Source of the DNA: Anaeromyxobacteraceae bacterium
GTDB lineage: Bacteria; Myxococcota; Myxococcia; Myxococcales; Anaeromyxobacteraceae
DNA: 64,000 bases
Assembly: GCA_032654565.1 (NCBI GenBank)
Contig: JAULAX010000015.1
Location: 512,001-576,000, forward strand
Reading direction: 5' to 3'
Shown here: positions 44,192-49,485 of the stretch, piece after piece
How positions within the stretch are numbered: the first letter of the stretch is position 1
Layout of the letters: every line of letters starts with the position of its first letter
Made by a program: the position numbers and the translations under genes
The notes under the pieces: model-generated
The model's input: only the letters and a program-made list of their open reading frames with translations
What the model was told of the DNA's origin: nothing
The model's database searches: none

Positions 44192-44584
44192 TCAGCGGTA
44201 GTCGGTGAGCTTGCGGCGGGGGGCGCCGAGCTTCGGGTCGTGGCCCGCCTGGCAGCCGGCGCAGCGGGTGGCCCAGGGCATGAGCCGGAGCCGCTTCACC
44301 GGGATCTCCTCCTCGCACTCCTCGCAGAGGCCGAAGTCGTCGGGCCGGGCCGCCAGGCGGCGCAGCGCCCCGTCGAGGCGGGCCAGCTGGGCGGCCTGCC
44401 CCTCGTTCCGCTTCGAGGCCAGCACCTGCATCATCTCGGAGAGGGCCTGGGCGTCCTCGTCGGCGACGCCGGTGGTGGCCGGGTCGGCGCGGTTGGGCTC
44501 GATGCGGGCGGGGCCGGCAGCCAGCAGCTGCTGGCGCAGCGACAGCAGCAGGGCGCGGTGGCGGGCGGCGGCGGCCGGGGTCAC
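44192..44584 (-). CDS. TraR/DksA C4 zinc-finger protein
   Basis: DEDAQA coiled-coil tip, FGLCEECEEEIP.KRL..MPWATRCAGCQ. GTGA overlap with the HAD gene. Confidence 0.88.
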   Translation of the reverse strand: MTPAAAARHRALLLSLRQQLLAAGPARIEPNRADPATTGVADEDAQALSEMMQVLASKRNEGQAAQLARLDGALRRLAARPDDFGLCEECEEEIPVKRLRLMPWATRCAGCQAGHDPKLGAPRRKLTDYR

Positions 44585-45267
44585 GTCAGGCCGAGGGCGG
44601 CCGGCAGCGCCGCCAGCGTGGTCAGCTCGACGTCGGGGGGATCGCCGAGCCGCTCGCGCGGCACGCCGGAGCGGTTGCACCAGGCCACCCGCAGGCCGGC
44701 GGCCTTGGCCCCCCAGGCGTCCCAGCCGTTGGCGGTGACGAAGGCCAGCTCCAGCGGCCAGACCCCGAGCCGGTCGAGCGCCAGCTTGTAGACCGAGGGG
44801 TGGGGCTTGTAGACGCCCACCGACTCGACCGAGAGGGTCTCGTCGAGCAGGTCGTCGAGGCCGGCGCTGCGGACCGCGGCCGCCAGCATGCGCGGGGCGC
44901 CGTTGGAGAGGATGGCGGTCCTGAGGTGGGCGGCCTTGATCCGGGTGAGGGCCTCGCGGGCGTCGGCGCAGGGGCCGATGCGCTCGTAGGCCTCCATGAG
45001 CCGGCGGCGCAGGTCGGGGGTGGCGATGCGCAGGGCGTCGAGCGCGTAGTCGAGCGAGTCGCCGGTCACCTGCCAGAAGTCGGCGTGGCGCCCCATCAGC
45101 GCGCGCAGCCAGGTGTACTGGAGCTGCTTCTGGCGCCAGAGCTCGGCGAGCGGGCCGGCCTTGTCGCCCAGCAGGTCGCGGGAGCGCTCCGCGGCGCTGG
45201 CCACGTCGAAGAGGGTGCCGTAGGCGTCGAAGACGACGGCGCGAACGCCGGCCAGCGGTGCCGCCAT
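44581..45267 (-). CDS. Haloacid dehalogenase type II
   Basis: VFDAYGTLFDV, WRQKQLQYTW, ILSNG, YKPHPSVY, ANGWDAWGAK. Confidence 0.93.
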   Translation of the reverse strand: MAAPLAGVRAVVFDAYGTLFDVASAAERSRDLLGDKAGPLAELWRQKQLQYTWLRALMGRHADFWQVTGDSLDYALDALRIATPDLRRRLMEAYERIGPCADAREALTRIKAAHLRTAILSNGAPRMLAAAVRSAGLDDLLDETLSVESVGVYKPHPSVYKLALDRLGVWPLELAFVTANGWDAWGAKAAGLRVAWCNRSGVPRERLGDPPDVELTTLAALPAALGLT

Positions 45268-45453
45268 GAGTCGCCTCCAGGGGAGCGGTGGTGGAGCAGT
45301 CTACCCCGTCGGCGCGCGGACGGAAGGTCCGCGGTGATCGGCGGGGAGGTCGGCGGCCGACCCGGGGGTCCGGCCGGCACGCCCCACCATGGGCGCCGTC
45401 GATCCCGCCGTGATGGCGAGGGGTTGCGAGGCCGGCGCCAGGGAGGCGGCCGG

Positions 45454-45486
45454 CGACTTTCCAAGTCGATTCGAAGGGCGTACCGT
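45454..45486 (+). promoter_or_regulatory. Putative promoter/operator for the candidate sRNA
   Basis: TTTCCA-17 nt-TACCGT. Inverted repeat CGACTT-TCC-AAGTCG overlaps the -35. Confidence 0.35.
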
Positions 45487-45492
45487 TTTCCC

Positions 45493-45645
45493 AGTGGTCC
45501 CAACCACCCCGAGGAGGCCGCAGATAACCAACCCGAGGCAGCTGTTCACATCTGCGTAGCACCACCGGCGAGAGCCGGACCCGCGCCCGAGCACAGGCGC
45601 CCAATGTGGTGGAGAAGAGGCCCCCGACACGGGCCTCTTCTCGTG
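45493..45645 (+). ncRNA. Candidate structured small RNA, family not recognised
   Basis: Consecutive stems GTGGT/ACCAC, CGCAGAT/ATCTGCG, and CACCA/TGGTG enclosing CCGGC-GAGA-GCCGG and GCGCC/GGCGC, then a 12-bp hairpin. No credible ORF. Strand inferred from the GNRA loop and promoter. Confidence 0.55.
45612..45642. terminator. Perfect 12-bp hairpin after the fadH stop / at the end of the candidate sRNA
   Basis: GAGAAGAGGCCC-CCGACAC-GGGCCTCTTCTC. Confidence 0.75.
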
Positions 45646-45655
45646 TCCGGGCCCC

Positions 45656-47740
<2,085 letters not shown>

Positions 47741-48255: not shown

Positions 48256-49485
48256 ATGAACACCAACGCGCACCTGACCCCATCCTCGGCCGCGGTTTCG
48301 GCTCACGCAGCGGCCAGCCTCCCCCTCGAACTTCGTGAAGCCCGCCAGGCCCGGGACACCCTCGCCACCCTGCTCGGGCGCGAGCAGTCCGCGATGGCCG
48401 AATTCCTGCTGGCCCTTTCCGACTTCGATCGGCGCCGCGGCTGGGAGCTGCTCGGGCACGCCTCGCTGTTCGCGTTCCTGCGGCATGGGCTGGGGCTCCC
48501 AAACGGCCCCGCCTTCTATCGGATGAGCGCGGTCCGGCTCCTCCACCGCTTCCCCGAGATCATCGGGCCCCTCCGGGACGGCCGCCTGTGCCTGACCACG
48601 GTGGCTGAGCTGGCCAAGGTGCTCACCGACGAGAACCGGGCCGAAGTGCTGCCACGTTTCTTCCGAATCTCCACCCGAGATGCCCAGGAACTGGTGGCTG
48701 AGCTGATGCCCCGATCATCGCCGCCGATGAAGACGGTGGTGACGGCCGTGGAGCGGGGCGTGGTCAAGCCGGCGCCGCCGCTGGCGCTGGTGGAACCGGC
48801 CGAGACGACGGCCGACACCCAGCGGCCGCTCGCAGCGCTGACCAGCTCACTTCTGGCGCCAGAAGTGGCGCCAGCCAACCCGGCGCGGGGGGTGGATCAC
48901 CACAGGGAAGTCGAGCCGCTCACGGCCGAGCTGACCCGGCTCCACCTCACGGTGAGCCGCCGGCTGGTGAAGAAGCTCGACGTCGCCCGCGAAGGGCTCG
49001 CGCACGCCATTCCCTGCGCCACGACCGAGCAGGTGCTGGAGGCCGCGCTGGACCTGCTCCTCGAGAAGCAGGCCAAGGCGCGCGGCCAGGTGAAGCGGCC
49101 GCGCAAGACCACCGCGACCGCGACCGTGGCCTCCTCCTCGACCTCGACCACGCCGCGGAACTCGTTCCCGACCCGGCGCGAGCCGCTCTACAGCCGCAAG
49201 GGGCCACGTGGGCACATCCCGGCCGGCCTCCGCCGCGCCGTCTGGGAGCGCGACCAAGGTAGGTGCGTCTGGCCGCTCGACGGCGGGGGCGTATGTGGCT
49301 CGACGCACCGGCTCGAGTTCGACCACCGCGTCCCGCGCGGCCTCAACGGCGAGACCGAGGAGGACAATCTTCGCCTGCTCTGCGAGCGTCACAACAAGCT
49401 GGCGGCGCGGCTCGCGTTCGGAGAGCGATGGATGGGGCGTTACGTCGGTGCGCGAGCGGGGCCGACTGGCCCTTCATCGGGCTGA
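48256..49485 (+). CDS. HNH endonuclease domain protein
   Basis: C-terminal IPAGLRRAVWERDQGRC..CGS..RLEFDHRVP...G.....NLRLLCERHN. N-terminal helical domain. Confidence 0.88.
   Translation: MNTNAHLTPSSAAVSAHAAASLPLELREARQARDTLATLLGREQSAMAEFLLALSDFDRRRGWELLGHASLFAFLRHGLGLPNGPAFYRMSAVRLLHRFPEIIGPLRDGRLCLTTVAELAKVLTDENRAEVLPRFFRISTRDAQELVAELMPRSSPPMKTVVTAVERGVVKPAPPLALVEPAETTADTQRPLAALTSSLLAPEVAPANPARGVDHHREVEPLTAELTRLHLTVSRRLVKKLDVAREGLAHAIPCATTEQVLEAALDLLLEKQAKARGQVKRPRKTTATATVASSSTSTTPRNSFPTRREPLYSRKGPRGHIPAGLRRAVWERDQGRCVWPLDGGGVCGSTHRLEFDHRVPRGLNGETEEDNLRLLCERHNKLAARLAFGERWMGRYVGARAGPTGPSSG

Follow-up and report, generated by a model that had tools for sequence, protein, structure and literature searches.

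The 388-bp gap between a HAD hydrolase gene and a fadH-like gene in an Anaeromyxobacteraceae genome (G000, the source genome) contains a real, unlisted small RNA gene that occurs family-wide and carries an unusually strict non-AUG micro-ORF, its transcript and translation being predicted from sequence comparison. The gap (45268-45655) lies in the window, the whole stretch of 64,000 nt that was analysed; its limits agreed with the letters and its neighbours were identified by Pfam. The features assigned to the element and its surroundings are as follows.

45458-45463, plus strand: predicted -35 hexamer of the sigma70 type, 17 nt from the -10 hexamer.
45481-45486, plus strand: predicted -10 hexamer, placed by inference; the aligned hexamers of relatives range to TACAAT, TATAGT and TATGAT.
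45493-45647, plus strand: predicted RNA of about 150-155 nt, from covariance models, with ends inferred from promoter and terminator.
45512-45517, plus strand: Shine-Dalgarno (SD) site AGGAGG, complementary to the 16S 3' end of the source genome.
45524-45559, plus strand: micro-ORF by ORF reading, with an ATA start, 11 codons (ITNPRQLFTSA) and a TAG stop at 45557-45559.
45565-45578, plus strand: hairpin P3, with a GAGA loop here and a stop-bearing loop in most relatives; 94% of cells paired, 1 of 5 pairs changed on both sides.
45583-45600, plus strand: hairpin P4; 96% paired, 6 of 6 pairs changed on both sides.
45612-45647, plus strand: hairpin P5 with a pyrimidine tail, a predicted intrinsic terminator; 12 of 12 bp here, 90% paired in the family.
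44581-45267, minus strand: HAD hydrolase (PF00702, E 9e-24), divergent neighbour outside the element, adjacent only in part of the genus.
45656-47716, minus strand: fadH-like flavin oxidoreductase (PF00724 and PF07992), convergent neighbour outside the element.

A preliminary description of this DNA, made from the letters of the window, had proposed an unlisted stand-alone small RNA gene of about 150 nt on the plus strand that is not a 5' riboswitch. Both parts of this prediction hold, as promoter, terminator and P3/P4 are kept while the neighbours change wholesale. The promoter-like TTTCCA (45458-45463) and TACCGT (45481-45486), 17 nt apart, are present as cited. The lack of a known RNA family was also borne out: within the window no Rfam family reached its gathering score, the best E close to the element being 1.2, and Rfam 15 returned nothing at threshold for 12 diverse homologue loci, with one sub-threshold rsmX match. 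A strict promoter and terminator scan of the element gave no promoter and no U-tract terminator match. Full-text searches of CC-licensed PMC papers and bioRxiv brought up no account of this RNA.

Homologues, which the preliminary description had suggested collecting, were matched in 72 of the 92 Anaeromyxobacteraceae genomes when covariance models R1-R3 were combined; these include 45 of the 54 high-quality genomes, and the models gave no match in the other 9. A BLAST-type search had long matches across most of the genus and in some other genera. Model R1, the first, was built from 15 copies and found full-length matches in 64 of the 92 genomes (68 loci), and the improved models added genomes G019, G061, G062, G063, G065, G088, G099 and G101. 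The source genome has a single copy, and only two of the 72 genomes depart from one full-length locus: G095, with four copies, and G021, with two identical copies at contig ends. The copies of G095 (L049, L072, L073 and L074) are intact, have promoters and lie at unrelated sites, with a DDE transposase gene upstream of one of them.

Scanning a single genome of each species with a pattern gave at least 120 loci, 80 of them with DNA; among the matches listed, 24 of these 80 scored at least 93 bits, and all 24 carried the name Anaeromyxobacter, Anaeromyxobacteraceae or unclassified (delta)proteobacteria. Members made up 78 of 80 loci matched by a metagenome pattern; because that pattern itself specified the start and stop, these loci were left out of the start and stop counts. 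None of the four viral pattern matches was a member, and phage records gave no match. Outside the family, one sample of genomes had no homologue (0 of 107), and weak matches only were obtained in a second (4 of 118), a third (3 of 138; the two inspected were terminators only) and a fourth (6 of 17; the five inspected were terminators, a tRNA, or an SD-ATC stretch of G055 without P3 or terminator). That last stretch (L410:1501-1646; G055 is of another family) has an SD, ATC, codons I-A-D-P and a long frame, and probably arose by chance. These outside searches scored only 19-77 candidates per genome, and distant relatives can be missed; within this limited sensitivity there is no convincing member beyond Anaeromyxobacteraceae in the order, class and phylum samples.

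The preliminary description had noted an exposed GAGGAGG with no start codon after it. This proved wrong for the source genome, in which an ATA at 45524, 6 nt past AGGAGG, opens an 11-codon ORF. Across 71 distinct copies (one duplicate dropped), the SD reads AGGAGG in 60, GGGAGG in 10 and AGGGGG in 1, and the codon that follows it after a spacer of 4-6 nt is ATA in 56, ATC in 15 and ATG in none. Four later copies have ATA, ATA, ATC and ATA, which brings the total to 75 of 75 distinct copies with ATA or ATC; the ATA/ATC idea was formed on the first 15 copies, and the other 60 were found by models that favour these letters without forcing them. On the tree, the third base of the start changes between A and C seven times and never to G. 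In the source genome, AGGAGG followed by a spacer of 4-6 nt leads to ATG at 189, ATC at 142 and ATA at 7 among 5,696 sites.

The frame opened by this codon has 16 codons in 45 of 68 copies and 9-20 codons in 60 of 68, with a range of 9-43, and codons 2-9 are free of an in-frame stop in 71 of 71 copies. The first stop falls in the P3 loop in 49 of the 71, earlier in 10, and later or not at all in 12, and the stop types TGA, TAG and TAA interchange nine times. When only P3 loops that do not start with G were considered, 21 of 29 kept an in-frame stop, against a background of 2.4% per position; a preference for GNRA loops alone (GUGA is also a GNRA tetraloop) is therefore insufficient as an explanation. 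The loop stop is missing in 9 of 10 early-stop copies versus 12 of 61 others, a correlation that amounts to few events, since 8 of the 10 early-stop copies, the source genome included, belong to one clade. An extended pairing of the SD and GAU with the 16S 3' end was considered and set aside; it is possible with a 2-3 nt bulge and leaves the stops unexplained.

Selection at the codon level appears clear at the ends of the ORF and weak overall. Changes at positions 1, 2 and 3 number 9, 13 and 25 in codons 2-5, and 55 of the 56 copies without gaps have Glu at codon 3, where all eight changes are at the third base; for the whole ORF the counts are 92, 96 and 113. Per codon change, the ORF frame has the fewest amino-acid changes (0.72; the five other frames give 0.76-0.83), and a pairwise count of synonymous changes gave that frame no advantage (57 of 191, versus 65 of 151 in another frame); 15 copies with indels were omitted from the codon analysis. 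If the start is read as fMet, the peptide in most copies is fMet-Ala-Glu-Pro-Ser...Pro-Ala, and 47 of 64 short peptides end in Ala. The peptide of the source genome is without the conserved A-E.

The idea of a dense non-coding fold, put forward in the preliminary description, was not upheld, as only three 3' hairpins are well supported and every copy has ATA or ATC and a conserved micro-ORF after the SD. Its prediction that the element would fold better than shuffled sequences was borne out for the 161-nt stretch (z -3.07 on the plus strand, -3.96 on the minus strand) but not for 45493-45611 without the terminator (z -0.46; 62 of 200 shuffles equally good); since the score falls to this level without the last hairpin, dense structure is unsupported by energy. 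In the source genome the 5' fold of the element shifts with the choice of ends. When 59 copies were aligned with MAFFT without regard to the fold, both sides had changed in 17 of the 32 pairs proposed, versus 8.1 in shuffles that ignore kinship, and a structure-fitted alignment agrees. Pairing is weaker in the 5' helices, at 82% for P1 and 75% for P2, and the RNAalifold consensus of the model-aligned copies retains only P3, P4 and P5; the SD is not reliably open in the models (mean unpaired 0.37).

Of the individual structures named earlier, the last hairpin is indeed a perfect 12 bp (45612-45623/45631-45642). The operator-like 6-bp palindrome over the -35, the helix at 45494-45507 and an alternative pairing (GAC../..GTC) read as a loop-tail terminator switch are all present in the letters but are not conserved in relatives. 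The helix at 45519-45556 likewise exists here, relatives having a weaker helix in another register instead, and the three-way junction at 45560-45611 contains its named helices but has a closing stem that is not conserved. Judged by the alignments, the 5' helix, junction stem, palindrome and switch are confined to the source genome or its nearest kin. Pairing of the terminator 3' arm with the SD (-13.5 versus -9.1 kcal/mol shuffled) was rejected, because the SD does not follow changes in the terminator arm and this type of arm commonly serves as a terminator in kin.

In 69 of 71 homologues a -35/-10 pair precedes the SD at a distance of 18-34 nt, whereas 200 shuffles gave 12.4 on average and at most 21; pairs were counted at 6 or more of 12, and the 18-34 nt distance window was set after a first look at the data. 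The P5 arm type also closes unrelated genes and tRNAs in kin, and the P5 terminator may also end the convergent fadH transcript. At 72 loci the next ORF is in sense orientation at 34, antisense at 29 and not seen at 9, the nearest ORFs being called by a codon-bias rule. Pfam, run on 74 of 125 neighbours, identified transporters, dehydrogenases, kinases, hydrolases, cytochromes and others, a set without a shared theme, and neighbours differ even inside one genus. Since the element moves as promoter, RNA and terminator while its neighbours vary, it is not a cis leader. In a freshwater-sediment metatranscriptome (X1, contigs only) the element has zero cover; the element of a relative is represented by one 310-nt contig at depth 3, which spans SD to P3, extends upstream by 172 nt across the predicted promoter and downstream by 70 nt, and may be DNA.

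Several other observations were made at these loci. In G063 a diverged copy (L113) is followed, about 150 nt further on and on its own strand, by a Cas3 HD-domain gene, and in two genomes (loci L066 and L069) a long 5' leader of repeated GCA-rich units precedes the SD. G063 also carries, at L117:1501-1649, an intergenic element of another kind, in which a long perfect palindrome precedes several hairpins and an end that resembles a terminator. In the window, a small DksA/TraR C4 zinc-finger gene (44192-44560, minus strand) lies directly behind the HAD gene and is followed by lemA and an M48 peptidase gene, and a 409-aa ORF with a C-terminal HNH domain (48256-49485, plus strand) lies between fadH and a membrane-protein gene. 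The source genome also has a tRNA-Sec gene.

Among known systems, Spot 42/SpfP and other dual-function sRNAs (AzuCR, VcdRP) are nearest in build, being likewise stand-alone small RNAs that carry, towards the 5' end, an SD and an ORF of about 15 codons; for Spot 42, the cited part of PMC12310071 gives 109 nt and 15 aa. By conservation, the element too is a stand-alone small gene with an SD and a short ORF, its ends being predicted; stop switching and frame keeping are indirect signs that the ORF may be translated in cells. However, Spot 42 starts with AUG and has known pairing targets, whereas the family RNA always has AUA or AUC, has no Rfam match and occurs in a source genome in which no Hfq was found. 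With the infC site it shares a strong SD and a conserved non-canonical start (75 of 75 ATA/ATC), but the frame gated at infC is IF3, whereas here it is a micro-ORF on its own terminated RNA with no conserved gene after it. Leader-peptide attenuators and uORFs likewise have a short ORF overlapping hairpins and then a terminator-like hairpin; unlike them, the family RNA has no conserved regulated gene downstream and no run of sensing codons. The mRNA-like domain of tmRNA also has a short frame that ends in Ala with its stop in a hairpin loop (the tag of the source genome is ANEPMALAA), but the family RNA is without a tRNA-like domain, has its own SD and start, and lies apart from the tmRNA gene.

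Pxr of Myxococcus (RF01812), a lineage-restricted sRNA of the same order, has three predicted stem-loops as well; the sections of PMC5568312 cited here describe it as 108 nt, sigma54-driven and fixed beside nla19. The family RNA differs in its length of about 150 nt, its sigma70-type hexamers and its variable neighbours, and the Pxr locus examined has no SD-plus-start pattern. The Pxr model gave no match in G000, G019 and G027, and 129 bits in two control genomes. Descent from Pxr or tmRNA was rejected, as the family profile had no nhmmer or profile match to either. The housekeeping 6S, SRP and tmRNA genes are all located elsewhere in G000, and neither an excess of GGA motifs over shuffles nor a genomic CsrA, as expected of a Csr/Rsm sRNA, was found.

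Among 30 family genomes (infC loci L280 and L284-L312; seven read by eye), the apparent start of infC itself is ATC in 17 and CTG in 7; as these make up 24 of the 30, non-AUG gating is plausibly in use in Anaeromyxobacteraceae. Six infC genes from one genus have an ATG 2-3 nt after the SD and an ATC two codons later. Of the six genomes with an infC ATG near the SD, two are without an RNA match and three have the most diverged form of the RNA. The dsg gene of M. xanthus reportedly has an AUC start, and to our knowledge conserved AUA/AUC starts occur mainly at infC and a few long genes. AUA and AUC initiate at 1-2% of AUG in E. coli according to the cited part of 10.1101/063800. In the sections of PMC5499595 cited here, AUU/AUC starts are the target of IF3 autoregulation, poor medium or nutrient limitation and ppGpp impair non-AUG starts, and in E. 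coli extracts an AUA message reaches 0.56-0.95 of AUG, with excess IF3 lowering AUA by at most 20-25%. Since this effect in extracts is mild, AUA need not be a sharp IF3 gate. Ribosome assembly defects raise non-AUG initiation (cited part of PMC6868393).

The conserved anatomy comprises promoter-like hexamers, SD, ATA/ATC, frame, stop, P3, P4 and terminator, and is independent of the neighbours. We consider it quite possible, though somewhat short of probable, that the element is a small self-standing message, translated only occasionally under the control of IF3 or nutrients, and that this translation acts as a sensor that remodels the RNA, both transcription and translation being predicted. 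The housekeeping polymerase would transcribe the RNA from the sigma70-type promoter, and a 30S subunit would load on the strong SD and initiate at AUA or AUC at a rate set by IF3 proofreading or the nutrient/ppGpp state, as at infC. The ribosome would then open the weak 5' helices and terminate in or just before P3, and the melting of P3 would alter the lifetime of the RNA or how accessible P3-P4 is to a trans-acting partner. The peptide differs among copies in its length and middle part, whereas P3 and P4 are retained even where they fall outside the ORF, which points to the act of translation mattering more than the product. Against the sensor reading stand the 12 of 71 copies with a late or absent stop, the weak pairing of P1 and P2 (82% and 75%) and the SD that is not reliably open in models (0.37), the mild IF3 sensitivity of AUA in E. 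coli extracts (PMC5499595, as cited above), the six infC genes with an ATG close to the SD, and the 9 of 54 high-quality family genomes without a match; in addition, no output, partner or target was found.

The same data were weighed for readings in which translation serves another end or none. A tiny mRNA whose product is the 11-16-residue peptide, scarce or IF3-gated through the non-AUG start and with hairpins that only protect and end the message, is the main rival but somewhat unlikely: codons 2-5 change mostly at the third base, Glu3 is kept, amino-acid changes are fewest in the frame, Ala ends 47 of 64 short peptides and Spot 42 makes a working 15-aa peptide (cited part of PMC12310071), but the whole-ORF changes (92/96/113) and the synonymous count do not single out the frame, the conserved A-E is lost in the source genome, length ranges over 9-43 codons, and the third-base signal at codon 16 coincides with the loop position. 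For a conventional trans-acting sRNA or protein-binding RNA, with the purine box and GAU as an RNA-level seed or site and translation incidental, one can point to the P3 sequence, conserved beyond the need for pairing, to the covariation of P4 and to base pairing as the established mode of most bacterial sRNAs (PMC12310071, in the part cited). This reading is nonetheless unlikely, as it leaves stop-codon switching, frame keeping and ATG avoidance unexplained, no conserved single-stranded seed was seen apart from the SD/start region, and the source genome has no Hfq match. Quite unlikely is a decoy whose SD captures 30S subunits, whose non-AUG complex IF3 rejects and which thereby buffers or stores the initiation machinery, the stop being a safety exit; the SD and the AU are the most invariant 5' letters, the unit stands alone with a housekeeping-type promoter and the four intact G095 copies suggest dosage, but a fixed 16-codon frame with synonymous changes exceeds the needs of a decoy, which would also require very high RNA levels.

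Two further readings carry little weight. That the element is a mobile or repeated extragenic element (REP/MITE-like), or a mere terminator with chance upstream motifs, would fit neighbours that differ within a genus, the G095 copies with one near a DDE transposase gene, and a fold score that rests on the terminator. It is very improbable against the single copy in the source genome, the one full-length locus in all but two of 72 genomes, the fading of likeness among three of the four G095 copies near promoter and terminator, the lack of visible terminal repeats and the viral pattern matches, 0 of 4 of which were members. A CsrA/RsmA-sequestering RNA that uses GGA motifs was suggested by AGGAGG, which presumably resembles a CsrA site, and by the leader of one homologue, which gave a sub-threshold rsmX match (33 bits versus 56, E 0.011). 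However, CsrA was matched in only 1 of 92 family genomes, and there partially, neither Hfq nor CsrA was matched in G000 (98% complete), and the GGA count is 3.58 versus 3.65 in shuffles; with its partner absent, this reading is effectively refuted.

Returning to the sensor reading, its wider form would make the RNA a new class of regulator, a free-standing "initiation gauge" that arose in Anaeromyxobacteraceae, with translation from a deliberately wrong start codon as its sole job and with IF3 fidelity or ppGpp state read out in trans as an RNA switch or a micro-peptide signal; we advance this only tentatively. The lineage in which it would act has CsrA in 1 of 92 genomes and a source genome in which Hfq was not found. 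If the family keeps an AUA/AUC start for a 16-codon frame without a gene in cis, such an RNA would be invisible to gene callers and to Rfam, and an SD followed by AUA/AUC, a short frame and a terminator is suggested as a search pattern for the hidden class. The family has cultured members, and in them the element would offer a compact, testable natural reporter of start-codon fidelity.
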